From an uncultured virus (IMG/VR IMGVR_UViG_3300009034_000863) (taxonomy: Duplodnaviria > Heunggongvirae > Uroviricota > Caudoviricetes), in IMG/VR virus record IMGVR_UViG_3300009034_000863: a stretch of DNA of 64,000 nucleotides. One strand, 5' to 3'. A program made the position numbers and the translations under genes. Each line of letters begins with the position of its first letter. Positions within the stretch are counted from its first letter, which is position 1. Under the pieces are notes generated by a model, which saw only the letters and a program-made list of their open reading frames with translations, was not told where the DNA came from and ran no database searches. Of this stretch, positions 4,091 through 52,974 are shown piece after piece.

Positions 4091-4483
4091 TTGGAAAGAG
4101 AAGATATAATCTTAGCCATGCTGTTATCAGACGGAAAAGACTACTCTCGTTTCAGAGACAATCCAGAAGATAACAAGATAAGAGCAAACAAAATGCTTGA
4201 TATAATCAAGAAGCATATAGGCGAGAAAGATTTAAGACTTAGAACAATGACTAATCTAGGGTTTAGAATTGCTGAACTTTTGATTGAGAGAGACAAACCA
4301 ACAAGAGGTGCAGTGAGAGATGAATTGTTAGTTGTTCCTTGTCCTTGTGGGTACACAATTCATCTGGTTACTTCAACCAGTTCTCAAACATTGAATTGGA
4401 TAACTGGAAAAGAAGTTAAGTGCCACTGGACTGGTTCTATACCATACATAGTCTTTGAACCTAAGAGGATACCTCAAGTATGA
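4091..4483 (+). CDS. hypothetical protein
   Basis: ORF, GAGGAG SD. Confidence 0.65.
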   Translation: MEREDIILAMLLSDGKDYSRFRDNPEDNKIRANKMLDIIKKHIGEKDLRLRTMTNLGFRIAELLIERDKPTRGAVRDELLVVPCPCGYTIHLVTSTSSQTLNWITGKEVKCHWTGSIPYIVFEPKRIPQV

Positions 4484-4869
4484 AATCTAAATATTACAAG
4501 GTAGGACTTCCTAAAGATGTTATTAAAAGAATGAGGAAGTTCCTTGAAGAGAGACAGAAAATTCCTAAAGATATGCTAGATGTTGAGGTTGTAGATAGGT
4601 TCATAGAAGTAGCAATTCACAGCTATCTTGGATGGGATTATGAAGGGATACCCAGTACAGAAGAATATGGTGACTTGGAGAAAGGAATTGTAGTTACTGG
4701 GGAAGTGAATTCAGATTATACTAGGGGATTATTCTATGGTCTTATGGATGCTTCATTGCCTAAAGATCCAGATCAATGGATTTTCTACTTCAGTGAATTA
4801 TTGAAGAACTTTGCAGGAAAAAAAGTCAAGATAACATTTGTAGTTAATGCAGAGAAGTGGAGACAATAA
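4480..4869 (+). CDS. hypothetical protein (RHH-like N-terminus) with C-terminal EKWRQ tag
   Basis: Ends AEKWRQ-stop. Confidence 0.7.
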   Translation: MKSKYYKVGLPKDVIKRMRKFLEERQKIPKDMLDVEVVDRFIEVAIHSYLGWDYEGIPSTEEYGDLEKGIVVTGEVNSDYTRGLFYGLMDASLPKDPDQWIFYFSELLKNFAGKKVKITFVVNAEKWRQ

Positions 4870-5028
4870 GATGGATGACAAATACAAGAAATTGATGGAA
4901 GAATGCTGGAAAGATGTTGATTTTGATTATCCTCCTAGTATGGAAGACTTGGCAAGATCTATTATGGCTGTAGAACTTTTCAAGAAGAGACTAGCAGCTG
5001 GTGTTTATCCAGAGGAGGTGAAACAAAC

Positions 5029-5274
5029 ATGACGACAAGTTTAAAATTAAACGGTAGAGTTCGAGTAGCCAAGACGGAATGGCTGGAAGCCCTTCAAGAT
5101 AAGGGAGAGAAAGAAGTCGTTATATATATTTCTGGATTGCCAAAGTCAGGAACTATGGGTCCTACTAACATGAACGGTACTTTGACAATAGATGTTTCAA
5201 CAATATCTCATACTCACCCAGAAATGTATGATGCAATACTAGAACTAGAAAAAATACTGGAAATTGGTTCATAG
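5029..5274 (+). CDS. hypothetical protein
   Basis: ORF, GGAGGTG SD. Confidence 0.6.
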   Translation: MTTSLKLNGRVRVAKTEWLEALQDKGEKEVVIYISGLPKSGTMGPTNMNGTLTIDVSTISHTHPEMYDAILELEKILEIGS

Positions 5275-5625
5275 GTGTCTCGAATGAAAGTTGAAAGAAA
5301 GAACTTCTGGTATAGGATACTTGCTCCTATACTGAATTGGTATGGGAGATCAAAAGGTATCAGTGGATGCCTCATATGTGGAGACAATTGGAACTGGAAA
5401 CAGGCTCATTATATTGAGATGAGGAAAGGAGAAAGTGCTTTTCCAACTTGTCAAGAGTGTTGGGATACATGTTCTGACAGAGAGATATTAAGGGCTGCTG
5501 AAGAACTTGGAATGACTTGGAAGAGTCATTCTAGATTGTTATTTCTTGGTCAATCAATAGACCAAGCTAATCTTCTGATGGCAACAACTAAAGTAGCTTT
5601 GCTCAGAAGAAAGAAGCGTTCATGA
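5275..5625 (+). CDS. Zn-finger hypothetical protein
   Basis: CLIC...CQEC. Confidence 0.6.
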   Translation: MSRMKVERKNFWYRILAPILNWYGRSKGISGCLICGDNWNWKQAHYIEMRKGESAFPTCQECWDTCSDREILRAAEELGMTWKSHSRLLFLGQSIDQANLLMATTKVALLRRKKRS

Positions 5626-5641
5626 GTACGAGGAGAGAATC

Positions 5642-6325
5642 ATGGAAACAGGTCATCAAGAAATAAATAGTATCATTGGTTTGATAACAAAGAATCAGAC
5701 TGATGAAGCCAATCAGAGAATCAAGTCGTTAAAGAAAAGGAAAATTGAGAATGGACAGAAGATACAGGGAATTGCTTCGGTAACTATGGTGCTTGAAGGT
5801 AAGAGAGATCCTGGGGCAGCGGCATTAGATCTTCTATTACTTAGAAGTTTCAAGGGTTACAAGATAAACAAAAAACAGAGGCAATCACTGATAAATCTCA
5901 AGAAAGCATTGGAATCAATAAAGTCTTCCACTGAAGATTGTCCACATCCACCTGAAAAACTGGAAATATACAGGCTGATGCATGGTGGTGGATTCACTCC
6001 AACTGTTGTAATTCCAGAATTAGTTTGCAGAGAATGTGGATTGAACGTTACTCTACCAGCATTTCAGAAGAGATGGAATGGAGAAGCAAAACCATTTGAC
6101 GAGCCAACTCATTCTCAGATCGAGGAACGATATGGAATACAAGTAATGGGGAAGTTCATAAAGAATCTGAAGGAATACATGGAAGATACTAATGCTGGTA
6201 CAATGGGTGTTGAAAATATACTGAAAAATCCAGAGGGAGTATTTGCTGAAGTCAAGAAGATGCCTTCTATGGAAGGATTCATTATCAATGACAAGAAGAA
6301 ACTAGACAGTTTCTCTGGGAAGTGA
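5642..6325 (+). CDS. hypothetical protein
   Basis: 227 aa ORF, CPH...CREC. Confidence 0.7.
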   Translation: METGHQEINSIIGLITKNQTDEANQRIKSLKKRKIENGQKIQGIASVTMVLEGKRDPGAAALDLLLLRSFKGYKINKKQRQSLINLKKALESIKSSTEDCPHPPEKLEIYRLMHGGGFTPTVVIPELVCRECGLNVTLPAFQKRWNGEAKPFDEPTHSQIEERYGIQVMGKFIKNLKEYMEDTNAGTMGVENILKNPEGVFAEVKKMPSMEGFIINDKKKLDSFSGK

Positions 6326-8856: not shown

Positions 8857-9189
8857 ATGGCAAGTAAAAAAGTTGCAATCGTTAGAGGAGTCCTAATCCT
8901 AGTATGCTTGATTGCAATAGGACTTTTTATAAACTACTTTGAAAATACAGAAAAAATCGAAATAACGAGCAAAGTAGCTTATCGCTATGTCAATCGAAAG
9001 AATCATGGGACCATCATCATTCCGCTAGGTGATGAACCAGGAGATCCTTCTTGGGGAGTTCCTATAGAGTCAGATGTTTTTCATCTAGTATTAGAAGATG
9101 GTTCAAATCATGAAGTATCCACTGAAGTGTTCGTTAAATACACTGAAGGAGATTACTACACATATACTACTAGAGTATGGAAAGGTTGA
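8857..9189 (+). CDS. membrane-anchored protein
   Basis: N-terminal TM helix. Confidence 0.65.
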   Translation: MASKKVAIVRGVLILVCLIAIGLFINYFENTEKIEITSKVAYRYVNRKNHGTIIIPLGDEPGDPSWGVPIESDVFHLVLEDGSNHEVSTEVFVKYTEGDYYTYTTRVWKG

Positions 9190-9494
9190 ACCAAACAGTT
9201 ACTCAAGAAGACAAGTGGAGACAGTCAGAGAACAATCCTCCCAGATGTCCTCACTGTGATCATTTACTATACAATATTCATATTGAGCAAGACTATTCTT
9301 TCTCTGGCTGGGAAACATATACTAAGAAGAGAGGATGGGTTCCTGAAGATCAAGCCTATGATGACTTGGATGATGGTGAGAAGTCAGATTATGATACTAA
9401 CGATTATGAAGAACTCGGTACAAGATGGGTTTGTCCATACTGTAATGAAACGATTGAGGATCCAGAAATAACTGGCAAGGTTGGATATTACTGA
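9177..9494 (+). CDS. Zn-ribbon protein with N-terminal DKWRQ tag
   Basis: EDKWRQ, CPHC...CPYC; similar to 52699..52974. Confidence 0.7.
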   Translation: MERLNQTVTQEDKWRQSENNPPRCPHCDHLLYNIHIEQDYSFSGWETYTKKRGWVPEDQAYDDLDDGEKSDYDTNDYEELGTRWVCPYCNETIEDPEITGKVGYY

Positions 9495-11714: not shown

Positions 11715-12106
11715 GTTGTAGATGTCCAGCTGGAAGCAGAGATGTAAAGATAGAATATTGTCTGCTGGAATGTGATCCAGAAGTTATGCAACATTGTCCT
11801 TCAATAATGAAGCTAGCTTTAGAAGCTAAGTGTGCTGACTGTGGAATAGGATTTAACTATTACAGTCTTTGGTGTAATCTTGCTAGAAGAGGTGCAACCT
11901 CTAAATGTGCAAGTCACCCTGAACATCTTCTGTGTAATGAATGTAGAATCAAGAGAGGAATAAAATTGTCTGGCGATAATATTGGGGAAGAAATCTGTAA
12001 ATATTGTGGAGAGAATCCACATTACAAGATAGGAACTGAAGATCATATTGGTAGCTGCTCATATTGTACATATGGAGTATGTACTCACTGTGGGAATGAG
12101 ACATGA
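11711..12106 (+). CDS. Cys-rich multi-Zn-finger protein
   Basis: Several CxxC pairs. Confidence 0.65.
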   Translation: MSCRCPAGSRDVKIEYCLLECDPEVMQHCPSIMKLALEAKCADCGIGFNYYSLWCNLARRGATSKCASHPEHLLCNECRIKRGIKLSGDNIGEEICKYCGENPHYKIGTEDHIGSCSYCTYGVCTHCGNET

Positions 12107-12357
12107 CTGAATCTAAGATTAAAGTATTCAAAGCAGGAGACAGAATAAGAATAAAAGAGGATATAAAAACTTCAGATGGAAAGTTCATATATCTCAGAGG
12201 GGGAGAAACAGGAGAGATACTCTCTATCAGTCAACATTCAAGATATCCTATTAATGCTAGATTGGACAATGGAACGACAGCTACCTTACATTTTTCAGAA
12301 ATAGAAAAAGTCGAGTACAAGAAATGGTCTCAAACTGAAGGAAAAGTAAATGAGTAA
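12103..12357 (+). CDS. SH3/KOW-like small beta-barrel protein with WxQ tag
   Basis: FKAGDRIRI...GETGEI...YP...EIE; YKKWSQ. Confidence 0.75.
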   Translation: MTESKIKVFKAGDRIRIKEDIKTSDGKFIYLRGGETGEILSISQHSRYPINARLDNGTTATLHFSEIEKVEYKKWSQTEGKVNE

Positions 12358-12604
12358 TTCTAAAATAGGGAACTTCAAGAAAGGGGATAGAGTCAGAATC
12401 AGGAGTGATATTAAAGATCTTATGGGAGGGAAGACTGTTGCAAGGCGAGGTGCTTTTGCAACAATTGTTCATATAGAAAAAGCCTTGAGCTATCCTATAA
12501 TTCTTCAGATGAAGAAAGATGGCACAAGATTTCAAGTATTAGCTGAAGAGATAGAGATGTGGAAGAGAAATGGTGATAAATGGCAACAGTGGGAAGGATC
12601 ATGA
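12350..12604 (+). CDS. SH3/KOW-like protein with WxQ tag
   Basis: FKKGDRVRI; DKWQQ. Confidence 0.75.
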   Translation: MSNSKIGNFKKGDRVRIRSDIKDLMGGKTVARRGAFATIVHIEKALSYPIILQMKKDGTRFQVLAEEIEMWKRNGDKWQQWEGS

Positions 12605-12843
12605 CTGAGAAAATAATAATTGTTACTGAGATATGTCCAGCCTGTAAGGCTGCTAAAATGAGTCTTACTGTTATGGGACTCATTAACAAAGTCAAGTTGG
12701 TAGATGCTAATTCTTCTGAAGGACAGAAGTTTGTTAGGAAACTTGGGATAAAATATGTTCCTCAACATATTATTGTCAAGAATAACAAGCCTAAGAAAGT
12801 TACTGAGGCAGAATTCACTAGGGCTTTATTAGAGGAAAAATAG
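12601..12843 (+). CDS. thioredoxin/glutaredoxin-like protein
   Basis: CPAC active-site motif and YVP cis-Pro loop. Confidence 0.7.
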   Translation: MTEKIIIVTEICPACKAAKMSLTVMGLINKVKLVDANSSEGQKFVRKLGIKYVPQHIIVKNNKPKKVTEAEFTRALLEEK

Positions 12844-12844
12844 G

Positions 12845-13066
12845 ATGAGACTTAAATTCAAAGTTGGGGACAGAGTCAGAGTAAAAAAGGATATAACAGA
12901 TGGTCCATTGACACTTGCTTATAAGGGAGAACTGGGAACAGTAAAAGTTGCTCAATGGGGAAGAGTCTGGGTTCCTTATGATGTAAAACTGGATAGTGGT
13001 CAGCTACTTTCTTTTGAAGGAAAAGAATTAGATCATGCAACTGGTAATAAATGGATGCAGGGTTAG
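12845..13066 (+). CDS. SH3/KOW-like protein with WxQ tag
   Basis: FKVGDRVRV; NKWMQG. Confidence 0.75.
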   Translation: MRLKFKVGDRVRVKKDITDGPLTLAYKGELGTVKVAQWGRVWVPYDVKLDSGQLLSFEGKELDHATGNKWMQG

Positions 13067-13070
13067 AGAG

Positions 13071-13292
13071 ATGACACCTAAGAAGTTCAAGATAGGAGAC
13101 AGAGTTGAAGTACTTAAGAATGTGGAAAGTTACGCTTCAAAAGGAGACAGAGGAAAAGTAACATATGTTTCTTCAAGTACTGGAAAAGGGGAATATCCTT
13201 ATGCTGTAAAGCTAGAAAAAAATGGAGAGAATGTTTCTTTTATTGCTAGAGAACTAAAGCGTATAGAACCTGATAAATGGATGCAGGTTTAG
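13071..13292 (+). CDS. SH3/KOW-like protein with WxQ tag
   Basis: FKIGDRVEV; DKWMQV. Confidence 0.75.
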   Translation: MTPKKFKIGDRVEVLKNVESYASKGDRGKVTYVSSSTGKGEYPYAVKLEKNGENVSFIARELKRIEPDKWMQV

Positions 13293-13296
13293 AAGG

Positions 13297-13521
13297 ATGA
13301 AACCCAAGTTCAAGAAAGGAGATAAAGTGAGGTTGTTAAGAAGAATAGAGTTCTGGAATGGAAGAGATTTTATTAGAGCCAGAGTAGGGAATACTGGAAT
13401 TATAACTGATATTTTAAAAGAAACTCCTTATCCCTATGAAATTAAACTTGAATCTGGTGTTCTTAATGTGGAAGAAGAGGAAATTGAATTAGCTGATTAC
13501 AAACAATGGTCTCAAGTTTAG
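13297..13521 (+). CDS. SH3/KOW-like protein with WxQ tag
   Basis: FKKGDKVRL; YKQWSQV. Confidence 0.75.
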   Translation: MKPKFKKGDKVRLLRRIEFWNGRDFIRARVGNTGIITDILKETPYPYEIKLESGVLNVEEEEIELADYKQWSQV

Positions 13522-14042
13522 GAAGTGTTAATATGGCACCTAAAGAAAAAAAGGAACAGGAAGATCAAGAAGAAAGTCTAAAAGATAATGAATGGACAGT
13601 GAAGTTCCCAGAGGGAGAATTTCCAATAGAAGTAAAAGGCACCCCTCTACAAGTAAAGTACAGAAAGGACATGAGGACTGTTGTTGTCATTCCAGATGGG
13701 GATATTCAGAAATATCTGTACATGAAGGCTTTGAATAGAATTAACAACACTATAACACTGAAAGCGTTTGTGGAAGGAAGAGTTGCAATAACAATAAAAG
13801 TTCCTACTCGACGTACTGTTTTTGAGTCTAGAAACAAAGAAAGAATCGGTGTGGTACATAATTTACATGAAGACACAGAAGGTGTCAAGAACGGTTACTG
13901 GTTATTCCAAGGGGGACTCTTACGAAAAGAAAAGGATCAAGTAAAACTTATATTCGACATGTTCAAACAGAACAGAAATGGAGAGAAGCTAGCTTTATCT
14001 GGAGTAGATATTTCAAACAAGAGAAAGATGTTCATATACTAG
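13506..14042 (+). CDS. hypothetical protein
   Basis: 178 aa ORF. Confidence 0.7.
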   Translation: MVSSLGSVNMAPKEKKEQEDQEESLKDNEWTVKFPEGEFPIEVKGTPLQVKYRKDMRTVVVIPDGDIQKYLYMKALNRINNTITLKAFVEGRVAITIKVPTRRTVFESRNKERIGVVHNLHEDTEGVKNGYWLFQGGLLRKEKDQVKLIFDMFKQNRNGEKLALSGVDISNKRKMFIY

Positions 14043-14052
14043 AGGCTTATAG

Positions 14053-14274
14053 ATGGTGAAGACCAAGTTCAATATAGGTGATGAAATAGTTATTATTCCT
14101 ATGGAAAGATCAGACCCGAAACATTCTAGAGGAGTAATAGAAAAGATCGTTATAAATGAACATGTGTATTATAAGGTTATTTGCAGATGTGGAGCACCAT
14201 TTGAAAGTCTAGAAGAAGGAGATCTCAGACTACTTGGTTCAAAGAGGGAACATAAATGGAGACAGAGTCCTTAA
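14053..14274 (+). CDS. SH3/KOW-like protein with WxQ tag
   Basis: FNIGDEIVI; HKWRQSP. Confidence 0.75.
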   Translation: MVKTKFNIGDEIVIIPMERSDPKHSRGVIEKIVINEHVYYKVICRCGAPFESLEEGDLRLLGSKREHKWRQSP

Positions 14275-14379: not shown

Positions 14380-14604
14380 ATGAGAATGCCACTAATTCTG
14401 GAAACTAGACTTCACTTGACAGAAGTTAGGGAACAGATAGAAGATGTAATCTTAGCTGAATGCAGGAACTGGGTTTTTAGAAAATATATCCAGCCTAAAC
14501 TTAAAAAAATAATCAAGCATATTGACGAGGTTCTAGAAGAAGAGGAAGAAGACAAGGAGGTAGAAGCAGTTGCTGTGGTTAAAACTAAAGAATCTAAGAC
14601 ATAG
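14380..14604 (+). CDS. hypothetical protein
   Basis: ORF. Confidence 0.55.
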   Translation: MRMPLILETRLHLTEVREQIEDVILAECRNWVFRKYIQPKLKKIIKHIDEVLEEEEEDKEVEAVAVVKTKESKT

Positions 14605-14914
14605 AAAATGTCCATATCTTTCAGAATGTACCCATACTACTATGGGTATTACTGAATTTAAGGAGAAATGTCTCTCCTTCTTTGGACATAATAGTTGCTA
14701 CTCCTTTGAAAATAAACTCAAAAGAGATGAAGATCATAAGAAGGACATGAAAAGAACTAAAAAAAGAGAAAAGAAACAGCTTAAGAGGCTAGAAAAAGAA
14801 AAGAAGACAGCTTCTAAATTTAAGGTCACAGTTTCAGAACGTCATTATCCTAATGATTGGAGTTCTTTAATAGGAAAGAAAGATGGGTGGGTTCAAGACG
14901 ATGGGGATAATTGA
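14570..14914 (+). CDS. 4-Cys domain protein with WVQ tag
   Basis: CPYLSEC...FKEKC...C...YPNDW; DGWVQ; resembles the C-terminal domain of 40099..40605. Confidence 0.6.
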   Translation: MLWLKLKNLRHRKCPYLSECTHTTMGITEFKEKCLSFFGHNSCYSFENKLKRDEDHKKDMKRTKKREKKQLKRLEKEKKTASKFKVTVSERHYPNDWSSLIGKKDGWVQDDGDN

Positions 14915-15897: not shown

Positions 15898-16316
15898 AAA
15901 TACCTATCTGTAGACTCTGTGCAGTTTGCTGTTATAGATGTCTCTTTCTAGAATTGAAAGATGGACTTTTCGGGTGCCTGATTTATAATAATAAAGGAAG
16001 AAGTCCTTTCCCTGCTGATATTTTCAAACTCTTCAATGATGAAGAACTTGAAGTTCAATTACTTTGGAGGATACAAGTTTTAATTGAGGGACACAAGTCA
16101 GGAGTTTGTGATAGTCATTACTGTACTTGGTTAAATCATTTTGTTGAGAAAGGAAAGTTCAGAAAGAAAGATTATAGGCTCTTTTCAGGTGATTACACTA
16201 AGCTAGTTAGAAGTTTCAGAGAAACTACTCAAAAGATTATTCAAGAAGGAAGAAACCATATCTCTGACTTCAAGAGTTTTGTAGAAACGATGAACAATAT
16301 CGGTGAAGCTTCTTGA
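15891..16316 (+). CDS. CxxCxxCC (YkgJ-like) metal-cluster protein, paralog 2
   Basis: CRLCAVCC...GCLIY; tandem duplicate of the previous gene. Confidence 0.65.
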   Translation: MVEIPICRLCAVCCYRCLFLELKDGLFGCLIYNNKGRSPFPADIFKLFNDEELEVQLLWRIQVLIEGHKSGVCDSHYCTWLNHFVEKGKFRKKDYRLFSGDYTKLVRSFRETTQKIIQEGRNHISDFKSFVETMNNIGEAS

Positions 16317-16552
16317 CAAGATTGAAATGTCCATTTCGAGTTGAAGACAGAGTAGAAATTATCAAGCAAGTTGGTTCAATCAAGCCAGGAATCACAGGGA
16401 CTGTTAGGAGAATAGACGATAATATAATGGAACAGAGCTTCTGGATTGTAGTCCAATTTGATAGAAAACATGCAGGTTATCGTACAGAACTTTCCTTTAA
16501 AATAAATGAGCTAAAATTGCTTTCTGATTCTAAATGGAGACAAAAACCCTAA
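16313..16552 (+). CDS. SH3/KOW-like protein with WxQ tag
   Basis: FRVEDRVEI; SKWRQKP. Confidence 0.75.
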   Translation: MTRLKCPFRVEDRVEIIKQVGSIKPGITGTVRRIDDNIMEQSFWIVVQFDRKHAGYRTELSFKINELKLLSDSKWRQKP

Positions 16553-16782
16553 AAGATGGGTTCTATTTGAGTGATCACAAGTTCAGAGTTGGAGATATAG
16601 TTTATGTTAAAGACAATTTCGGTCCACCAGAGATGAGAGGAGTACAAGGTTTAGTTGTTAAAGTAGATGGTATGTGGATTCGAGTCAGTCTTGAGACAAA
16701 AGAGAAAGTTGTAACCACATATCCATTTCTGAAGAATGAAATATCATTTCAGCGGTCAGATCGGTGGAGACAGTCACCCTAA
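16534..16782 (+). CDS. SH3/KOW-like protein with WxQ tag
   Basis: FRVGDIVYV; DRWRQSP. Confidence 0.75.
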   Translation: METKTLKDGFYLSDHKFRVGDIVYVKDNFGPPEMRGVQGLVVKVDGMWIRVSLETKEKVVTTYPFLKNEISFQRSDRWRQSP

Positions 16783-16801
16783 ATTACTGGAGAAGAATTG
16801 A

Positions 16802-17023
16802 GTGTCAGAATGTCCTTTTAAGCTTGGAGACAGAGTTCGAGTAGTTAGAACAGTTGAAAGAGCCAAGCCAGGAGACAAGGGTATAGTTACAAAAATAGAG
16901 ACTGTTGATGACACTCTTCTGGTAAGAGTTAATTTAAAAGTACCAAAGAAACAAAAACCAGTAAGAGCTTATTTCAGAACTAATCAACTCAAGTTAATTG
17001 ATAGATGGAAGCAGAAAATATGA
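16802..17023 (+). CDS. SH3/KOW-like protein with WxQ tag
   Basis: FKLGDRVRV; DRWKQKI. Confidence 0.75.
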   Translation: MSECPFKLGDRVRVVRTVERAKPGDKGIVTKIETVDDTLLVRVNLKVPKKQKPVRAYFRTNQLKLIDRWKQKI

Positions 17024-18036
17024 AAATATTGAAAAATATAAAGGTGCCAACTGGGAATATACTGATAGTCAAAGGAGACAATGGACTGATTGAGATGTTG
17101 TCTCTTGGAGACTATGGGAAACAAGTAAACCTGAAATGTGATGCTCTTGGATTAACAAGAGATATTGAGAGAGTACTACATACTCAGATGTTACCTCTTG
17201 AAACCAAGTGGGTAATAACTGTTTCTACTCAATATGGATGCTCTATGGGATGTTTGTTCTGTGATTGCTGGATGGTTGGTCCAGGAGTCAATTGTACTTT
17301 TAATGATTTGATTAAACAGATTCTAACTGGTATCAAGCTCCATCCAGAAGTTACATTCACAAAGAGATTGAATATTCATTTTGCTAGGATGGGAGAAGGT
17401 ACATGGAATCCTCATATTCTAGATGCTGCTAAATGGTTAAAGGAACACATTGACTCAGAGTATAAGATTCACCCAGTAGTATCAACAATGATGCCAAGGA
17501 AGAATGAATGGCTGAAGACTTTTATTCATACTTGGATGAGAATCAAGAATAGATTGCTTAGAGGAGAGGCAGGTCTTCAGCTAAGTATTAATTCTACTAA
17601 TGAAAAAGAAAGAGCCAAGATGTTCAATGGAAATGCTCTGACACTCTTTGAGATACATAAATTGATGCAAGGGATAGTACCTAATGGCAGAAAGATAACT
17701 CTTAACTTTGCAGTGGCTGACTGGGAAATAGACCCTCATGTACTTCGTCAATACTTTGATCCTGATGATTATATAGTGAAGCTAACACCTATGCATAAGA
17801 CAAGAGTTGCAGAAGAAAATAATATTAGAACTAAAGGTGATTACACTACAATTGCTCCATACAAAAAGATAGAAGAATCTCTTAAAGCAGTAGGATTTGA
17901 TGTTCTAGTCTTCATAGCTTCTAAAGAAGAAGACTTAGGTAGAATCACTTGTGGAAATGTAATCCTTTCGGGGACTGTACCAGAAGTACCATATGAGGTA
18001 ATACATGATGAGCTACATGTTTCAAAGACTCACTAG
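17020..18036 (+). CDS. radical SAM enzyme, RlmN/Cfr-like
   Basis: VSTQYGCSMGCLFC (CxxxCxxC), RMGE, LQLSINS, C-terminal TCG. Confidence 0.8.
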   Translation: MKILKNIKVPTGNILIVKGDNGLIEMLSLGDYGKQVNLKCDALGLTRDIERVLHTQMLPLETKWVITVSTQYGCSMGCLFCDCWMVGPGVNCTFNDLIKQILTGIKLHPEVTFTKRLNIHFARMGEGTWNPHILDAAKWLKEHIDSEYKIHPVVSTMMPRKNEWLKTFIHTWMRIKNRLLRGEAGLQLSINSTNEKERAKMFNGNALTLFEIHKLMQGIVPNGRKITLNFAVADWEIDPHVLRQYFDPDDYIVKLTPMHKTRVAEENNIRTKGDYTTIAPYKKIEESLKAVGFDVLVFIASKEEDLGRITCGNVILSGTVPEVPYEVIHDELHVSKTH

Positions 18037-18247
18037 AGTTTCTTACCGAGGAGCAAGGGTAGGAGACAAAGTCTTAATTCTCTATGGTGAAAACAAGAGA
18101 AAAGTAGGACAAATTAGAAGAATAGCTAAAGGAGATATGTTCCCATTTAAAGTGAAAGTTGAAGGCTTGCCAACTATTATCTCTTACTCGAAAATGGATT
18201 TCAGAGTATTGAAAGATGAATGGATTCAAGAAGGAGAGACCCGATGA
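18005..18247 (+). CDS. KOW/SH3-like protein with WxQ tag
   Basis: RVGDKVLILYGENKRKVG; DEWIQ. Confidence 0.7.
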   Translation: MMSYMFQRLTRVSYRGARVGDKVLILYGENKRKVGQIRRIAKGDMFPFKVKVEGLPTIISYSKMDFRVLKDEWIQEGETR

Positions 18248-18486
18248 AGTTTGAACTTGGAGATAGAGTATTTATTATTCAGAATTCGGGTAACTTGAGA
18301 AAGGGTGATGAGGGAACAGTAATAAAAATTGATACTGGACTACAACAAAGTCATCCATACCTTGTTGAATTCAACTTGGCAAGAAGGTATCCACCTAAAT
18401 ATCGTTCTTGGATGAGTGAAGGAATTCTAGAAGGAAAGGAGTACAAACCATGGTCCCAAACAGATTCAAAAGAGGAGACAAGATAA
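18244..18486 (+). CDS. SH3/KOW-like protein with WxQ tag
   Basis: FELGDRVFI; YKPWSQ. Confidence 0.75.
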   Translation: MKFELGDRVFIIQNSGNLRKGDEGTVIKIDTGLQQSHPYLVEFNLARRYPPKYRSWMSEGILEGKEYKPWSQTDSKEETR

Positions 18487-18665
18487 TTAGTAACAAACTT
18501 GCCGAAGCTGTTCCTATAGGAACTAAAGGAACGGTTCAAGCAACTGTAAAATCACCAGCTGGAATTGAGTATCTTATTTCATTTGAGGATGTTAGACCCA
18601 CAATATGGGTTAAAGAGGATGCAATAGAATTTCAGGAGTACAAGGCATGGTCTCAAACAAGTTGA
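18450..18665 (+). CDS. SH3/KOW-like protein with WxQ tag
   Basis: FKRGDKII...GTKGTV; YKAWSQ. Confidence 0.75.
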   Translation: MVPNRFKRGDKIISNKLAEAVPIGTKGTVQATVKSPAGIEYLISFEDVRPTIWVKEDAIEFQEYKAWSQTS

Positions 18666-18865
18666 GAGTAGGAGACACAGTAGCTCTTACAATTAACTTA
18701 ATTGGTATTCCTCTGGGAACTGAGGGAGAAATAGCTAGGACTTCAAGAGGACTAGACCGTCCATATTGTGTACACTTTAAAACTTCATCTGGAACAAAAA
18801 TAAAATGGGTTCGGAGAGGCTGGATAAAATTAACGAGGTACAAACCTTGGGGACAGATAAGTTAG
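18647..18865 (+). CDS. SH3/KOW-like protein with WxQ tag
   Basis: LRVGDTVAL...GTEGEI; YKPWGQ. Confidence 0.75.
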   Translation: MVSNKLRVGDTVALTINLIGIPLGTEGEIARTSRGLDRPYCVHFKTSSGTKIKWVRRGWIKLTRYKPWGQIS

Positions 18866-19025
18866 TTGCAGTCGGAGTTACTTTCTGGAACATTGACTGG
18901 GAATATGAATGGACCAGAGATTTCATCATAGAACATGAACCTAGCAAGGAATGGCTTCGATCTTTATATGATGGAGTTAATGAAGCAATAGATTTTGAGA
19001 TACTCGGTGAAGTTGTGAAGAGAAA

Positions 19026-19235
19026 ATGACATCTTTTACTGTTGGTGATACTGTCATTCTCAAAAAAGAAATTTCTTCTGATCTGATTAAAGGGACTAAA
19101 GGAAGAGTTAAACAACTGGGTGGAGGAGCAATCTTAGTAAGATTCTTTCTGAAAAACAAGAAGTTTTTTGAAACTTGGGTATGGCATGAAGACATTAGAA
19201 AGGCTAAATATGAGATCTGGAGTCAGATAAAATGA
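19026..19235 (+). CDS. SH3/KOW-like protein with WxQ tag
   Basis: FTVGDTVIL...GTKGRV; YEIWSQ. Confidence 0.75.
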   Translation: MTSFTVGDTVILKKEISSDLIKGTKGRVKQLGGGAILVRFFLKNKKFFETWVWHEDIRKAKYEIWSQIK

Positions 19236-19492
19236 CTGAAAAAGACAAAGTTGATGAATTAATAGAAGCAGGTATTGATCCTTCTCTTATGAACATTCTT
19301 CTTAGAAATGGAGTGGGATGCTACCACTGTATATTTAAGAAGAAATGTTTGACTTACACAATGACTGATGAGGAATATTTCAGTAAGCTAGCCGATTATT
19401 GTATGATAAAAAGGTGTCCAATAGTATTTGCAGCTTATCCAGAAGACTTGAGCATTTGGACAGATGGAGTTGAAATCTATGAAGTTCAGTAA
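19232..19492 (+). CDS. Cys-containing hypothetical protein
   Basis: CYHC...C...C...CP. Confidence 0.6.
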   Translation: MTEKDKVDELIEAGIDPSLMNILLRNGVGCYHCIFKKKCLTYTMTDEEYFSKLADYCMIKRCPIVFAAYPEDLSIWTDGVEIYEVQ

Positions 19493-19685
19493 AGGAGACA
19501 AGATTGTTACAAATCGGTATCTTGGCAGACATCTTCCAAGAGGAACAAAAGGGTTCGTTAGTGCTCCTGGTACTGAATCAAGTTATGTCTTTTTGTACGG
19601 CAAGAACTGGTACAGACCCACAATGTGGGTTAGTAATGAACATTTAGATTTAAGGGAATATGAACAATGGAGTCAAGTAAGATGA
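19479..19685 (+). CDS. SH3/KOW-like protein with WxQ tag
   Basis: FSKGDKIV...GTKGFV; YEQWSQ. Confidence 0.75.
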   Translation: MKFSKGDKIVTNRYLGRHLPRGTKGFVSAPGTESSYVFLYGKNWYRPTMWVSNEHLDLREYEQWSQVR

Positions 19686-22778: not shown

Positions 22779-23045
22779 TTGAATATTCCTAAAGGATTTG
22801 TTTTAATAGCTTGTGTAGAGTGCAAAAAGGAATTCATCTGTAGAGGACTTTGTAGTGGTTATGTAGAGGACCCTAGTAAAAGCTGTTGTGAATGTCTTAA
22901 GTGTGCATATGAAACACTAGACATTAAGATTGGAAGTAAAGAAGAGAAACAGTATCTGAAAGAAAATCTTACTTGTTTCGGTAATCTTACTTATCTAGAA
23001 ATAATGTTGGTAAATCCAGATGAGAAGTGGAGACAGATATTTTGA
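22779..23045 (+). CDS. multi-Cys family protein with WxQ tag
   Basis: CxxC-F-x-C-x-G-x-C...CxCxxC...CF; EKWRQIF. Confidence 0.7.
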   Translation: MNIPKGFVLIACVECKKEFICRGLCSGYVEDPSKSCCECLKCAYETLDIKIGSKEEKQYLKENLTCFGNLTYLEIMLVNPDEKWRQIF

Positions 23046-23305
23046 CACTTAAAAATGTCTGTAGAAAATGTGGTGTGAAATATATCTGTAATGGAGATCA
23101 ACATGCGTTTTGCCATAGGGGTAAATGTGTTTGTTTAAAGTGTTAGGCACAAAGATCAGCTCGACTAACTATGAGGAAATATGAGTACGAGTTAGAAAAA
23201 CGCTTTAGAGAACTTTCAAGTAAAGACAACTGTTTTGAGGGAATGTCTCCTAGCGATATTTTTTCAGATGAGCCTCTTATAGAGAAATGGAGGCAGTTGC
23301 TTTGA
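23042..23305 (+). pseudogene. multi-Cys family member with in-frame TAG (23144-23146)
   Basis: Frame continues after TAG to CF...EKWRQLL. Confidence 0.65.
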
Positions 23306-23556
23306 CAGTAACTATTAAGACTTGTCATGACTGTAGAAGACAATTTGTCTGTCGAGGAGGTCTTAAGAAGTGTGTTGCTCTCAATCTTTCATGTCGCTGT
23401 CATGAATGTAAGTTCAAAGATCTAAAGAAAACAGAAAATATTGGAAATCTTACATTAGAAAGTTGGACAGTTACTTTTGCTTGTTATCAAGGTATGAGGG
23501 ACCCCTTCAATATAAAAGAAGATGGAGTTAGAGACAAGTGGAGACAAATGATATAA
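23302..23556 (+). CDS. multi-Cys family protein with WxQ tag
   Basis: CHDCRRQFVCRG...CRCHEC...CY; DKWRQMI. Confidence 0.7.
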   Translation: MTVTIKTCHDCRRQFVCRGGLKKCVALNLSCRCHECKFKDLKKTENIGNLTLESWTVTFACYQGMRDPFNIKEDGVRDKWRQMI

Positions 23557-35322: not shown

Positions 35323-35596
35323 TTATGGAGTTTATGCAGATACTGATACATGGGTAGTGAACTCAACTTACCCTAAATACATTATTACTCCTTTCAAACC
35401 AAAAAAGGATAAACGCTGTCCTAACTGCAAGAAGAGATTGGAAGAAACAGAAGTATGGAGTCAATGTCCTTATTGTGGCTTCAATATTGGTAAACAGATG
35501 TATGAACCTATTACATTTCCGAATTCAGTAGAGATGATAAGACAAGTTAGGAGGATGCAGTCAAGATGGTTTTCCCCTTCATCAAGTTCAGAATAA
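35312..35596 (+). CDS. Zn-ribbon protein
   Basis: CPNC...CPYCG. Confidence 0.6.
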   Translation: MPDDYGVYADTDTWVVNSTYPKYIITPFKPKKDKRCPNCKKRLEETEVWSQCPYCGFNIGKQMYEPITFPNSVEMIRQVRRMQSRWFSPSSSSE

Positions 35597-35826
35597 AACC
35601 TACTAGACATTATGCTAGATGTCTAGGTTGTCGTCAACAAGTATTCAAAGGAGATCCAGAAGTTAGAATATTAAAAGACAACTTTCGGGGAAGATCGTTA
35701 AAATATGCTAGTTTTCATTTGAAATGTTTTCTGGATGAGTTCATAGTACATTTGTATGAGTTTTCTAATCAATATGGAATTCAAAGTGATCCTTGGACAC
35801 AAAAGATGAGGCAGGTGATAGCTTGA
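35566..35826 (+). CDS. PARP-type Zn-finger-like protein with WxQ tag
   Basis: ARCLGCRQQVFKG...FHLKC; DPWTQ. Confidence 0.55.
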   Translation: MVFPFIKFRIKPTRHYARCLGCRQQVFKGDPEVRILKDNFRGRSLKYASFHLKCFLDEFIVHLYEFSNQYGIQSDPWTQKMRQVIA

Positions 35827-36014
35827 CTTTACAACAACACTGTGGAAACTGTACTCGTTATAGGCATAAAGACGAATATAGAAGAAGACATGAGATTCGT
35901 TCAGACCTTATTCCTTGTGAGCTTAGAGCAAATAACTGTAGACTTGGGAAATGTGCATTCTGGAAAGAAGATAGACCTAAGAATGAGAAGTGGCATCAAT
36001 GGGACCTAAAATGA
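35793..36014 (+). CDS. Cys microprotein with WxQ tag
   Basis: CGNC...C...CAFW; EKWHQ. Confidence 0.6.
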   Translation: MDTKDEAGDSLTLQQHCGNCTRYRHKDEYRRRHEIRSDLIPCELRANNCRLGKCAFWKEDRPKNEKWHQWDLK

Positions 36015-36253
36015 GGAAAGCTAAAATGTATGAGAGGGTTTGTACCACTTGTAGAAGTCCTTTCAAATGTAATGGTGTTTGTGGAGATCCAGAAAGGTTA
36101 GCAACTGAGCATAGAAAATATTGTTTCTGTAAGAAATGTGCATCTCAGCGAAACCCTGTAAGAAGGTATTACTTTAAAAATGGAAAACCATTTCCACCAA
36201 GTTATTGTTATGTTGAAAGAACCCTTTCAGATCCTTGGATGCAGATATTATGA
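36011..36253 (+). CDS. multi-Cys family protein with WxQ tag
   Basis: CTTCRSPFKCNGVC...CFCKKC...CY; DPWMQIL. Confidence 0.7.
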   Translation: MRKAKMYERVCTTCRSPFKCNGVCGDPERLATEHRKYCFCKKCASQRNPVRRYYFKNGKPFPPSYCYVERTLSDPWMQIL

Positions 36254-36468
36254 TAAAGAGAAAAAGACACTGTGAGAACTGTGGGACTTCTTTTATTTGT
36301 TATGGGATTTGTGAAGATGAAGGAAGACTTAGTAAAGTGTCTGATTGTTTCTGCTTGAAATGTATTTTAAGACATAAATTCGTAAGAAAAAATGGAAGAA
36401 CCAAGAAAATATTCCCTCCAGAATTTTGTTATAAAGACCCTTCAGAACCTTGGAGGCAGGTAATATGA
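36250..36468 (+). CDS. multi-Cys family protein with WxQ tag
   Basis: CENCGTSFICYGIC...CFCLKC...CY; EPWRQVI. Confidence 0.7.
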   Translation: MIKRKRHCENCGTSFICYGICEDEGRLSKVSDCFCLKCILRHKFVRKNGRTKKIFPPEFCYKDPSEPWRQVI

Positions 36469-36710
36469 CAAATAGAAGAAATAACAAAGAGTGTCCAATA
36501 TGTTCTATCAAGTTCTCATGTTCAGAAAGATGTATGAGTTCAAGGAGACTCTCCAATAAGCGTTCTTGTCAATGTTCTGGTTGTATGACTAGAGATCCTA
36601 AACTTATGAGAATTATTTTGAAGCAGAGAGAAAGATTGCATCCAGATCTAAGTCCACCAGAAGGATGTTATAAGATTAACTTGAATGAAAAATGGAGGCA
36701 GATAATGTAA
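36465..36710 (+). CDS. multi-Cys family protein with WxQ tag
   Basis: CPICSIKFSC...CQCSGC...CY; EKWRQIM. Confidence 0.7.
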   Translation: MTNRRNNKECPICSIKFSCSERCMSSRRLSNKRSCQCSGCMTRDPKLMRIILKQRERLHPDLSPPEGCYKINLNEKWRQIM

Positions 36711-43411: not shown

Positions 43412-43579
43412 ATGAGTAGTGAACTGAGAAGAATGATAGCTGACATTATATATTCTGCAAATTGGCGTACAGGAAACGATGATTTTTATATGGAAGATGA
43501 GGATGAGATAGCTGACTGGATAATAGAGACAGTTATTAAGGCTCTAAATCTAAGAGAAGGAAGGTGGATTCAAGAATGA
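43412..43579 (+). CDS. 55-aa helical microprotein with WxQ tag
   Basis: Translated by hand; IIYSANW...GRWIQE; paralog of the next gene. Confidence 0.6.
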   Translation: MSSELRRMIADIIYSANWRTGNDDFYMEDEDEIADWIIETVIKALNLREGRWIQE

Positions 43580-43746
43580 ATAAAGAATTGGTAGATGAAC
43601 TAATGGAAATTATCTACTATGGAGATTGGAATGTGGAACCTGATGAGTGGTACCTTAATAATGAAACACAGGTTGCAGAGAAAATAGTTGAGGCTGTATT
43701 ACAACATTTGAACATGAAAGATGAAAAGTGGGTTCAAGATGCCTGA
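43576..43746 (+). CDS. helical microprotein with WxQ tag
   Basis: IIYYGDW...EKWVQDA. Confidence 0.6.
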   Translation: MNKELVDELMEIIYYGDWNVEPDEWYLNNETQVAEKIVEAVLQHLNMKDEKWVQDA

Positions 43747-44041
43747 ATTGTTTTCTGCTAATCCAAGAGCAAGAGTCATAGGAGCACAAATACACAATAC
43801 TAATATTGGAACTGAATTGGATGGGGAGATATGGTTTATTGACTGTTATTTTCTTGATTGTGTATTTATTAAACCGTTTGAAAATGGTGGGAGAATACCT
43901 TCTGAACCTGTTCCATATCTTAAAGGTTGTTCATTTATAGACTGTGTCATTGACAGTAAATATTTTTCTAAATGTTCTAATAATCTTACAAGAATTAATG
44001 ATCCAAGTCTTCAAGACAACTGGCAACAGATAATTCCTTGA
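43721..44041 (+). CDS. pentapeptide/beta-helix-like protein with WxQ tag
   Basis: FIDCYFLDCVF, CSFIDCVI; DNWQQ. Confidence 0.55.
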   Translation: MKSGFKMPELFSANPRARVIGAQIHNTNIGTELDGEIWFIDCYFLDCVFIKPFENGGRIPSEPVPYLKGCSFIDCVIDSKYFSKCSNNLTRINDPSLQDNWQQIIP

Positions 44042-51262: not shown

Positions 51263-51463
51263 ATGAACTGTGGAAATTTCAAGGATAGAGACGAATATAA
51301 TATGAGGACATGTATATTCTGTTACTTCTTTAGTTTCTCAGAATATCTTGATGCAAACTCAGATGGAGAATACAAGTGTTCTCATTACTTAGATATAACA
51401 CTTGAAAAGTGGAAAAAGAGAATGGGAAAGAAAGAGAATGTTGAAAAATGGATTCAATCATAG
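51263..51463 (+). CDS. Cys microprotein with WxQ tag
   Basis: CIFCYFF; EKWIQS. Confidence 0.6.
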   Translation: MNCGNFKDRDEYNMRTCIFCYFFSFSEYLDANSDGEYKCSHYLDITLEKWKKRMGKKENVEKWIQS

Positions 51464-51675
51464 GTGAGAGAATGTCAAATTTCAAGGTAGCAGAAAAATG
51501 TGATATGTTTATTTCTAATTATTCAATAAAATCTTGCACACTATGTCAGAACTTTGATTTCACTAAAGCTATTCTTGATGAGAACAGTTGTGGGTGTGAA
51601 CGAATGAAAGACCTAGATATAGAGATTTTAATAAAAGAAAGAAATAAGAGGAAAGACAAATGGTTTCAAAGTTAA
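51448..51675 (+). CDS. Cys microprotein with WxQ tag (paralog of previous)
   Basis: CTLCQNF; DKWFQS. Confidence 0.6.
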   Translation: MDSIIGERMSNFKVAEKCDMFISNYSIKSCTLCQNFDFTKAILDENSCGCERMKDLDIEILIKERNKRKDKWFQS

Positions 51676-52019
51676 AGAAAGATAAATGGGTACACAAATT
51701 TAATAAAGAAAAGAAATCTAAAAATGATGCAGAAGGAAGACTTACATTTATTGGAATGGATACTGATGGAGTAACAATGATAGTAGAAGATATTAGTGGA
51801 AGAAGACATGCATTGACAGAAATTACTCCTTATGGTGAATATTATAGGGATACTTCAAATCATACTATAGGTACTGGAGACACTATTGAAGTAATTGGTA
51901 ATGTTGGACCAATAAACTTTAGAGATCAATATACAGGAGCTGTAGTTGGTGATAATTTCTTTTATGGAAGTAGAAGACCAAGAGGAGTAGGTAATGAAGA
52001 AGAAGAAGAAGAAAGATAA
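51660..52019 (+). CDS. hypothetical protein with N-terminal DKWVH tag
   Basis: KKDKWVHKF. Confidence 0.6.
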   Translation: MVSKLKKDKWVHKFNKEKKSKNDAEGRLTFIGMDTDGVTMIVEDISGRRHALTEITPYGEYYRDTSNHTIGTGDTIEVIGNVGPINFRDQYTGAVVGDNFFYGSRRPRGVGNEEEEEER

Positions 52020-52254
52020 ATGGGTGCATGATTTCACTAAAAATAAAAGAGTTATTTCATTTCAAGAAGCGAGTCTAATTGATGCTGCAAATAGTTTAAT
52101 GGTACATATGGTTCGAGAAAATGAAGGAATTCCTATGCAAGTAATAGCTGATTACTCTCTTGCTATGGATTCTTTTATTATATATGACAGTCAAGGAAGA
52201 GAAATAGCAAGGAGTACTGCTGAGGAATTAGAAAATGGACAAATGGAAACATGA
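51994..52254 (+). CDS. hypothetical protein with N-terminal DKWVH tag
   Basis: KKDKWVHDF. Confidence 0.6.
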   Translation: MKKKKKKDKWVHDFTKNKRVISFQEASLIDAANSLMVHMVRENEGIPMQVIADYSLAMDSFIIYDSQGREIARSTAEELENGQMET

Positions 52255-52465
52255 TTTTGAAGAGAAGAAATGGAAAGTTATAGGAATCAAACAGATACTC
52301 CAAGGCATTGAAGTATCAGTAGAAAGTCCAGAAGGATATATATTCTCTAATATATTTAATGGAGAATATGATATGAATAATCTTCCAGATATTGCAATTT
52401 ATACTCAAGACAATATAGAACTTGTGAGGGTTAAAAGTGAAGACTTCAGACAAATGGAAACATAA
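52235..52465 (+). CDS. hypothetical protein with N-terminal DKWKH tag
   Basis: MDKWKHDF. Confidence 0.6.
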   Translation: MDKWKHDFEEKKWKVIGIKQILQGIEVSVESPEGYIFSNIFNGEYDMNNLPDIAIYTQDNIELVRVKSEDFRQMET

Positions 52466-52721
52466 ATTCGATAAAGATTGGAATGAGAAAATAGAGAAGA
52501 GATACTTCATACATTCACATCATCGACCAATCATTCAGGTGGATGATCAAGCTATCGGAACAGTAGAATCAGCAACAATTGAAATTGATGATTCTCCGTT
52601 TGTACAATCTTTAAGAGAATTAAGTACAGAAGAATTAGAAAGAGTGAGAAATCGCTTGAGAGATTTAGGAACAATAAGAAGAATAGAGAGACCAAGAGGT
52701 GAAACAAATGAAAGAGAATAA
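52437..52721 (+). CDS. hypothetical protein with N-terminal DKWKH tag
   Basis: DKWKHKF. Confidence 0.6.
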   Translation: MKTSDKWKHKFDKDWNEKIEKRYFIHSHHRPIIQVDDQAIGTVESATIEIDDSPFVQSLRELSTEELERVRNRLRDLGTIRRIERPRGETNERE

Positions 52722-52974
52722 AGATAAATGGAAACATAATGAACCTAAGATTCCATTGTGTCCTGAATGTGATGAGCCACTAGAAGAAATAAATGGGACA
52801 GGCAGATTAACTACTTATTCTGAATATGTTTCTTTCAGAATGAGAAATGATAAATATGAGGAAATAGATAGTGAAGGAGCAGATATCTATGATATCAACG
52901 ATGATGATATGGAATATGAATGTAGAGAATGTGGAGCATCTATTCCTTGGGACATAATATCGAAGTGGATGTAA
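52699..52974 (+). CDS. Zn-ribbon protein with N-terminal DKWKH tag
   Basis: KDKWKH, CPEC...CREC. Confidence 0.65.
   Translation: MKQMKENKDKWKHNEPKIPLCPECDEPLEEINGTGRLTTYSEYVSFRMRNDKYEEIDSEGADIYDINDDDMEYECRECGASIPWDIISKWM

Follow-up and report, generated by a model that had tools for sequence, protein, structure and literature searches.

A tryptophan-anchored terminal peptide on small proteins of an uncultured Caudoviricetes virus, a candidate docking signal

The contig IMGVR_UViG_3300009034_000863, from an uncultured Caudoviricetes virus, is 136,431 bp long, and a 64-kb stretch of it (the window, to which all counts below refer) was analysed for a short peptide, [DE]-K-W-x-[QH], that recurs at the ends of its small proteins. 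Every long open reading frame (ORF) is read from the plus strand, and together they cover about 97% of the window. The GC content is 0.32–0.40, dropping from about 0.37 to about 0.33 past 40 kb, and the GC skew is strongly positive in each 4-kb bin (0.16–0.32). Family scans with Pfam (150 window proteins) and PHROGs (33 proteins) recognise virus-like nucleotide and DNA genes, i.e., ThyX, dCMP deaminase, two N6/N4 DNA methylases and RNase H, as well as genes for an RNA-ligase-like protein, a RadA/KaiC-like ATPase, a DUF5131 protein, a metallophosphoesterase and an FKBP26-type chaperone. A ubiquitin-like kit is also present, which consists of a ubiquitin-like protein (Ubl), a 387-aa protein, a JAB-like protein and a ThiF E1-like protein. 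Roughly one gene in four codes for a small protein that carries the peptide, termed the tag or motif here.

The terminal motif and its carriers

The plus strand was tiled into 185 ORFs, and W-x-[QH] was scored as C-terminal when found within the last 12 residues. It is present there in 41 of the 185 ORFs, whereas shuffling of residues within each protein gives a mean of 1.58 and a maximum of 7 (1000 shuffles). Within the proteins it is rare, with only 13 occurrences in 15,476 internal residues. Thus the terminal enrichment proposed in a first-pass annotation of the sequence holds against both the shuffled and the internal controls that the annotation had called for. The surroundings of tryptophan display the same asymmetry: Q is at position +2 in 41 of 70 terminal W residues (last 13 aa), compared with 10 of 302 internal ones.

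A scan of all frames shows 45 terminal in-frame copies. The copy at 28415, which falls within the JAB gene but in another frame, was discarded, and 44 C-terminal carriers remain: the 41 tiled ORFs, two that were lost in the tiling and one whose W is 13 residues from the end. In five ORFs (51660, 51994, 52235, 52437 and 52699) the motif falls within the first 15 residues, and ORF 9177, with its W at residue 14, provides a sixth N-terminal copy. These totals are close to those counted by eye in the first-pass annotation, about 45 C-terminal ORFs and about six N-terminal copies.

Alignment of the 44 C-terminal tails on the Trp (44/44) shows D or E at –2 in 33, K at –1 in 28, and Q (41) or H (3) at +2; H also replaces Q in the five N-terminal copies. 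Where –1 is not Lys (16/44), it is P, R, Q, G, E, A or I, and five further tails have K at –2. Position x is variable (R 13, S 8, M 5, I 4, and others). After the Q, the residues I, S, V and K are the most common, followed by I or a stop. The motif lies 0–10 residues from the protein end, and the W is most often 5 residues from the end (17–18 cases) and next most often 4 (8 cases). A subtype, Y-[KE]-x-W-[SG]-Q, is found in 7 of 13 aligned SH3-like proteins and in no others, as the annotation had claimed.

No protein of the window with a Pfam enzyme family bears the motif, and the statement that recognisable enzymes are untagged is therefore upheld. The sole carrier with any Pfam match is 18220, with an SH3_12 match that is below cut-off. 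Two labels given earlier to individual carriers fared less well. The description of 43721 as pentapeptide-like is not confirmed, with no Pfam match at E≤0.001, and the label "membrane" applies to one borderline case only, 32099, in which the maximum 19-residue Kyte-Doolittle mean is 1.59.

The 44 carriers fall into 22 BLAST clusters (E≤1e-3). Merging of these clusters by our reading of the sequences, as opposed to a tool output, suggests about 14 groups: 15 SH3-like proteins, 12 multi-Cys proteins, four Zn-ribbon proteins (131–149 aa), an acidic Cys-free pair, a related Cys pair and about nine singletons. The twelve multi-Cys proteins (22779–24473, 32358–33468 and 35990–36710) are about 80–100 aa long with 8–11 Cys residues in a common spacing, C-x2-C, F-x-C-x-G-x-C, C-x-C-x2-C, then a late C followed by an aromatic residue; they match no Pfam or PHROG family.

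Within families, the motif is the part that persists. In the alignment of 13 SH3-like sequences, which share 18–41% identity, the invariant columns are the W, the Q and one Asp (D13). In six sequences consisting of multi-Cys proteins and carrier 29009, the W and the Q are as invariant as five Cys, which are taken to be zinc ligands. An alignment of three sequences, the 51448 family with an orthologue from a related contig (see below), has K, W and Q among its 11 invariant columns.

In the SH3-like family the tag is an addition to the fold. Block-mean confidence (pLDDT) values in the AlphaFold model of 12103–12357 are 86–93 in the barrel and 56–57, with no secondary structure, in the tail from residue 71 on; the motif is thus placed by the model on a low-confidence tail outside the barrel. 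Foldseek relates the barrel to SH3-like folds (ferredoxin-thioredoxin reductase variable chain, PsaE, the Pex13p and Fyn SH3 domains, YorP and the CPH domain). An exhaustive HMMER search of 1.84 billion representative sequences with the SH3-like profile gave 2188 matches (E≤1e-3). Many of these relatives contain 3–17 repeats of the domain, and in most matches listed the best match ends by profile position ~66, before the tail. Of 150 listed matches, 16 were fetched: 12 are short proteins with the tail, all of them the window's own, and four are multi-repeat proteins in which each repeat ends in an acidic linker with no W-x-Q.

The SH3-like domain of the 15 carriers belongs to a very large and apparently unnamed repeat family, present in the window as single-domain genes in tandem. 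Between the two SH3-like arrays lies a radical-SAM-like protein of 343 aa (17005–18036), with a weak Pfam match (E=3.9e-4) and a full-length match to phrog_24834 at 2.7e-112.

Table 1. Positions of tagged genes and of the ubiquitin-like kit in the window
Feature	Position	Strand	Details
Single carrier, 129 aa, no known family	4480..4869	+	Trp codon 4858; motif is the extreme C-terminus
N-terminal copy, W at residue 14	9177..9494	+	Trp codon 9216; BLAST-related to 52699-52974
First SH3-like array, six genes (12103-12357, 12350-12604, 12845-13066, 13071-13292, 13297-13521, 14053-14274)	12103..14274	+	Trp codons 12325, 12581, 13052, 13278, 13507, 14257
Carrier, 114 aa, four Cys, Lys-rich linker	14570..14914	+	Trp codon 14888
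Three SH3-like carriers, just upstream of the radical-SAM-like gene	16313..17023	+	Trp codons 16535, 16765, 17006
Second SH3-like array, six carriers	18005..19685	+	Trp codons 18221, 18451, 18648, 18848, 19218, 19668
Seven carriers, six multi-Cys and one 44-aa microprotein	22779..24473	+	Trp codons 23028, 23288, 23539, 23769, 24005, 24226, 24441
Ubl, 73 aa, ThiS / Ub-Mut7C-like, Gly-Gly one residue before the end	26577-26798	+	Pfam
387-aa protein	26887-28050	+	No family by Pfam, PHROGs, PDB sequence search or Atlas
JAB-like protein, 321 aa	28047-29012	+	Below Pfam cut-off
Four Zn-ribbon-containing carriers, 131-149 aa, between the JAB and E1-like genes	29009..30659	+	Trp codons 29414, 29833, 30259, 30645
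ThiF E1-like protein, 225 aa	31244-31921	+	Pfam
Six carriers directly after the E1-like gene	31899..33468	+	Trp codons 32100, 32240, 32359, 32589, 33164, 33427
Untagged weak helix-turn-helix match among the post-E1 carriers	32608-32952	+	Pfam
150-aa protein, full motif 23 residues from the end; outside the 44	33458..33910	+	Trp codon 33839
Five carriers, three of them multi-Cys paralogues	35566..36710	+	Trp codons 35794, 35991, 36236, 36451, 36693
Three carriers, an acidic Cys-free pair (55-60 aa) and a 106-aa protein	43412..44041	+	Trp codons 43565, 43729, 44021
Two Cys-containing carriers	51263..51675	+	Trp codons 51449, 51661
Five tandem ORFs with N-terminal D-K-W-[KV]-H	51660..52974	+	Trp codons 51687, 52021, 52244, 52455, 52729

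Selection on the peptide and reuse at gene junctions

The nucleotide pattern of the motif is locked to the coding frame. The string GA.AA[AG]TGG...CA. occurs 29 times in the coding frame, and never out of frame or on the minus strand; AA[AG]TGG...CA[AG] occurs 28 times in frame and once out of frame. In the acidic and Lys codons bases 1 and 2 are conserved, and base 3 of the acidic codon is free, its relative entropy being 0.05 (A11 C7 G11 T16), compared with 1.06 and 0.97 for bases 1 and 2 of that codon. Lys codons follow genome usage (AAA 18 / AAG 10 vs 57:43), and there is a lean toward G-ending codons for Gln (CAG 23 / CAA 18 vs 40:60) and Glu (GAG 9 / GAA 6 vs 29:71). The 24-nt flanks of the motif show 31.6% and 31.0% identity between instances, compared with 28.7% and 33.8% in controls taken at the same place in untagged genes. 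The flanks are no more alike than the controls, and thus the instances did not arise by copying of a DNA cassette.

A repeated DNA boundary or cassette site, such as an integron attC-like site or a phage module boundary, was rejected on the same flank identities (0.316/0.310 vs 0.287/0.338); inverted repeats were not searched for. A frameshift fusion of neighboring genes was likewise rejected, as no slippery heptamer common to the junctions was seen when the junction DNA was read by eye.

The tag is also retained in a relative. The RadA-like protein of a metagenome contig, L001, is 84% identical to that of the window, and this contig is syntenic with window positions 48954–63980 at 68–79% DNA identity (about 70%). 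L001 768–1007 codes for an orthologue of 51448–51675 that is 35% identical and ends in the motif plus six more residues. The adjacent L001 1004–1267 codes for a 33%-identical orthologue of 51660–52019, with an ATGA-overlap start and the motif at residues 3–7. Thus, from these alignments, the tag has been kept while the rest of the protein diverged, and the N-terminal form is genuinely a peptide at the N-terminus. The search of related genomes suggested in the first-pass annotation therefore does find the tag, on orthologues that are 33–35% identical.

These orthologues lie in a slot that is hypervariable (49663–52973 in the window, 750–1296 in L001), located between the DUF5131 gene and a conserved 100-aa gene (52976–53278). 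The slot (49.7–53.0 kb) has 3.3 kb of small genes in the window versus two small genes in L001. Its window content consists of small Cys-rich and tagged genes, including a run of tiny untagged Cys-rich ORFs (49982–51023, 40–85 aa), some of which have a repeated C-x2-C-x-G-x-G-like spacing; this run is just upstream of the tagged pair 51263–51675.

Beyond this relative, the clade of the element is almost unsampled. A tblastn search of a phage collection gave no match to the RNA-ligase-like protein, and protein searches of IMG/VR gave no relatives of that protein, of carrier 29009, of the RadA-like protein, of ThyX or of the 387-aa protein when aligned with its single relative. A DNA pattern of two motif copies 215–245 nt apart matched 112 stretches in IMG/VR, which is about the number expected by chance by our rough estimate, and none of the pattern loci that were fetched has more than one strict terminal motif. 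In 5.8 billion proteins, the SH3-like profile matched only the window's own proteins, the 51448 family matched only itself and the L001 protein, and the only relative of the 387-aa protein is 66% identical and on a 2.7-kb contig. The RadA-like alignment found only distant relatives in GTDB genomes, at 26–42% identity. The best two of these, at 26–27% identity, are in one Methanopyri and one Altiarchaeales metagenome-assembled genome, and together with the FKBP26 domains they weakly hint at an archaeal host.

The motif also overlaps with the signals that start the next gene at some junctions. Ribosome-binding sites of the element are AGGAGGTGAT-like and located at about –14 to –8. In 15 of the 44 tails the x codon is AGN, and TGG with AGN then forms a GGAG located 13 nt upstream of a start codon that shares bases with the TGA stop; at 10 junctions a canonical start is found 14 nt after the Trp codon. 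In addition, the base preceding TGG and the TG of the Trp codon together read ATG, GTG or TTG in 43 of 45 copies. The downstream gene is in the frame of this embedded [AGT]TG at 32 of 44 motif junctions, compared with 56 of 142 other junctions. Among the candidate starts at 18451 and 18648, only the embedded ATG holds the N-terminus of the next SH3-like paralogue in register with its relatives. Thus the Trp codon with AGN supplies the next gene with a GGAG at ribosome-binding distance, or with an in-frame start, at some of the junctions.

At seven junctions (18451, 18648, 32359, 51661, 14257, 16535 and 23288) the embedded ATG is the only canonical start of the downstream gene, or the only one besides a TTG. 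Its use as the start there would give gene overlaps of 14–37 nt, with the Trp codon doubling as an initiator.

The reuse accounts for the preference for R and S at x and for the favored spacing to the stop. It leaves the motif itself unexplained, because the T of TGG, the CAR and the GAN-AAR are outside the ribosome-binding consensus, because an intact motif is also found at the 12 junctions whose embedded start is out of frame, and because in L001 the embedded frame stops after five codons (DNA read by eye). Furthermore, reading from the embedded start would put the conserved bases in third and the free bases in first codon positions, which is not the periodicity that coding selection in that frame would give. 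The identification of the motif as a Shine-Dalgarno or translational-coupling site was rejected: GGAG is present in only 15 of 44, the base preceding it is T and not A, and the frame-lock is 29:0.

Selection thus acts on the peptide and not on a DNA repeat, as indicated by the frame-lock, the free wobble positions, the roughly genome-like codon usage, the unrelated flanks and the retention in a relative. This is what the first-pass annotation had claimed. It had also named two outcomes that would count against it, a lack of enrichment at the termini and conservation of the nucleotide string irrespective of frame, and neither was found.

A docking peptide and the alternatives to it

The analysis shows a real motif at protein termini that is under selection as a peptide, is located outside the fold in one family and persists in a relative. 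From its position at a terminus, at either end of the protein, on a flexible tail and on small binding modules rather than enzymes, the motif is read here as a docking peptide; location at either protein end would suit such a peptide. We infer that the tag binds something, and that this something is one partner. With moderate confidence, [DE]-K-W-x-[QH] is proposed to be a docking peptide for one partner, carried on the flexible ends of at least 44 small proteins at the C-terminus and of six at the N-terminus. The conserved residues are at i, i+2 and i+4 (acidic, Trp, Gln), and those between are looser or free. This spacing suggests an extended strand that would show one face to the partner. 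Purifying selection acts on the amino acids and maintains the motif. In the proposed mechanism, the acidic, Trp and Gln face of the extended peptide would insert into one site on a single partner, and the shared plug would bring SH3-like barrels, putative multi-Cys zinc modules, Zn-ribbons and helical microproteins to the same place.

Several points weigh against this proposal. The comparison rests on one related contig and on 64 kb of the 136-kb contig. By our grouping of the sequences, about 31 of the 44 carriers appear to be in two expanded groups, one of 15 SH3-like proteins with the four Zn-ribbon/SH3-like fusions and the other of the 12 multi-Cys proteins. The number of independent carrier families would therefore be nearer 14 than 50 and the number of independent acquisitions modest. 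Thus the first-pass description of the carriers as about 50 proteins of unrelated folds is correct, but overstated as to the number of families. The bias at x (AGN in 15/44) and the location of W at the fifth-last codon (17–18 cases) are explained in part by reuse as a ribosome-binding site, and nucleic-acid constraints are superimposed on the peptide signal, as displayed by the downstream frame (32/44 vs 56/142). Finally, the predicted flexible tail comes from one family only; the AlphaFold model of a multi-Cys protein is uninformative, with a mean pLDDT of 46.

The ubiquitin-like kit is the leading candidate for the partner of the tag, a tentative proposal that is more likely to fail than to hold. 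Carriers are found around the kit, with seven upstream (22.8–24.5 kb), four between the JAB and E1 genes and six just after E1. However, arrays distant from the kit (12–14 kb and 18–19.7 kb) have the same density of carriers, and position alone thus proves nothing about the kit as partner. A more specific and still less probable form of the proposal is that the roughly 50 tagged microproteins serve as interchangeable substrate receptors or adaptors that plug via the Trp tag into the viral kit of Ubl, JAB, E1 and 387-aa protein. If so, the virus could aim one tagging machine at dozens of host targets. No E2 was recognised.

Outside the kit, the gene at 48364–48990 has a weak match to the phiEco32-like COOH-NH2 ligase type 2 (Pfam 6.1e-05, below cut-off; PHROG 1.1e-04). 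The product may be an amidoligase for peptides or proteins, encoded by the element that also carries the Ubl kit.

The tag could instead be a site of covalent modification, in which the conserved Lys or Gln would be acceptor or donor for the Ubl kit or for the carboxylate-amine ligase-like protein at 48364–48990. Short consensus sites that a conjugating enzyme reads directly would be the parallel. The Ubl, JAB-like and ThiF E1-like genes (26577–31921) are among the carriers, the weak ligase match is in the same element, and the candidate residues are frequent, Lys at –1 in 28/44 and at –2 in five more, and Gln at +2 in 41/44. An acceptor-lysine consensus would have an invariant Lys, however, and Lys at –1 is replaced in 16/44, while His takes the place of Gln in three C-terminal and five N-terminal copies. 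Only the Trp is invariant, as would be expected of recognition more than of chemistry; no E2 is recognised, and the 387-aa protein has no family. Modification is thus considered unlikely. Somewhat more doubtful is a degradation or timing signal, a terminal degron that would be read by a host protease or unfoldase and would clear the small proteins together. The motif is terminal and exposed, like known terminal degrons, and is limited to small non-enzymatic proteins. Terminal degrons usually need a free end, whereas the tag occurs at either terminus and 0–10 residues from the C-terminus; a degron would in any case also be a docking peptide, and thus a special case of the docking proposal. Cleavage after the Gln by a 3C-type protease was rejected, as the next residue is mostly I, S, V or K and not consistently small.

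Two further explanations are regarded as very improbable. One is a nucleic-acid signal at gene junctions, either ribosome-binding site plus start or a recombination boundary, with the peptide as a by-product. The GGAG 13 nt before stop-overlapping starts, the starts 14 nt after Trp at 10 junctions, the embedded ATG, GTG or TTG in 43/45 and the downstream frame in 32/44 are what such a signal would give. The frame-lock of 29:0:0 and the presence of AGN at x in only 15/44 are not. The T of TGG, an invariant base, does not pair with the anti-Shine-Dalgarno sequence, and most GGAG strings in 40 upstream sequences follow an A (by eye); CAR and GAN-AAR have no match in the ribosome-binding consensus. 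The motif stays intact at the 12 out-of-frame junctions and in L001, whose embedded frame is short, and the N-terminal copies come after the start codon. As for recombination, the flanks have no extra similarity, and thus there is no substrate beyond 15 degenerate bases. On these observations a nucleic-acid signal is largely refuted. The other explanation is a relic of common descent, an ancestral tail spread by duplication and domain swapping with no function shared at present. The two expanded paralogous groups (our grouping) and the tandem arrays are in keeping with it. Nevertheless, W and Q remain invariant in families that have drifted to 18–41% identity, the wobble positions are randomised, and the tag is kept on the diverged L001 orthologues, all of which indicates purifying selection and not drift.

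Docking peptides at the termini of a few proteins, such as those of clamp binders and cargo tags, are familiar. In this element about one gene in four within 64 kb codes for the same five-residue peptide, which is found in at least a dozen apparently unrelated families of small proteins. If one partner reads the tag, a common role would be given to about 50 otherwise unannotated proteins, and it would become visible how the small "dark-matter" proteins of a large virus are organised. For pull-downs the tag offers a natural handle, and a selected peptide that overlaps the ribosome-binding site or start of the next gene is a clean example of dual coding.

Comparison with known motifs and adaptor systems

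Full-text literature searches found no such tag, as judged from listings and the openings of abstracts, and within that literature the tag appears to be undescribed. It was compared with known systems in which a short element recruits numerous proteins.

The PIP-box (consensus Q-x-x-[LIVM]-x-x-[FYW]-[FYW]) and the beta-clamp motif (Q-L-[SD]-L-F or Q-L-x-L-x-L) are, like the tag, short linear motifs mostly at the extreme terminus, on flexible tails, that bring many unrelated proteins to one hub, and they are used by viruses as well. In the 44 tails, however, the acidic residue, K and W precede the Q and no aromatic pair follows it, which rejects the PIP-box, and there is no L-x-L pattern after the Q, which rejects the beta-clamp motif. 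Unlike the replication enzymes that carry clamp tails, the tagged proteins are about 50 small non-enzymatic ones, and no clamp gene was seen in the Pfam scan of the window.

The LC3-interacting region or Atg8-interacting motif (LIR/AIM) has the core [WFY]-x-x-[LIV], and the Trp pocket of Atg8 is formed with its N-terminal helices. Shared features are a Trp anchor after acidic residues (D/E at –2 in 33/44) in a disordered stretch; in addition, the LIR partner has a ubiquitin-like fold, and the element encodes a Ubl beside the carriers. The core is nevertheless absent, with I, V or L at W+3 in only 15/44 (I 9, V 5, L 1) and no conservation of that position. A conserved Gln at +2 is not part of LIR, and the only Ubl seen, which is ThiS / Ub-Mut7C-like and has 73 aa, probably leaves no room for the N-terminal helices of Atg8.

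In encapsulin cargo peptides and the T4 capsid-targeting sequence, a short terminal peptide likewise sends unrelated proteins to one container, and a C-terminal tag on unrelated proteins, as in encapsulin cargo, is what is found here (44 carriers, 22 BLAST clusters). The sequences themselves are unrelated to the tag, and the T4 signal is N-terminal and is cleaved off. No encapsulin, HK97-fold shell, capsid or prohead-protease gene was recognised in the 64-kb window by the Pfam and PHROG scans, and about 50 cargo species for one container would, to our knowledge, be without precedent.

A Shine-Dalgarno sequence within the 3′ end of an upstream gene resembles the motif in that the GGAG formed by the Trp and Arg or Ser codons is at the usual ribosome-binding distance of the element from the overlapping starts. 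The likeness covers only the AGN preference and the stop spacing, and not the Trp, the Gln, the Lys, the acidic residue or the frame-locking.

Thus the tag would work like clamp tails and targeting peptides; it is, however, a member of neither, as the order and identity of the residues differ and no clamp, shell or prohead-protease gene was recognised in the window. The F-box, SOCS-box and poxvirus PRANC receptors are similar at another level. In these, a library of variable binding modules is connected by a shared small element to a ubiquitin-type machine, and here the carriers surround a viral Ubl/JAB/E1 kit. No equivalent of cullin, Skp1 or E2 was recognised in the window, and the shared elements of those receptors are folded domains of ~40 residues, in contrast to the five-residue peptide. 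Should the tagged proteins indeed be receptors for the kit, they would represent a counterpart of the F-box, SOCS-box and PRANC libraries in a virus of prokaryotes, built from a linear motif instead of a domain.

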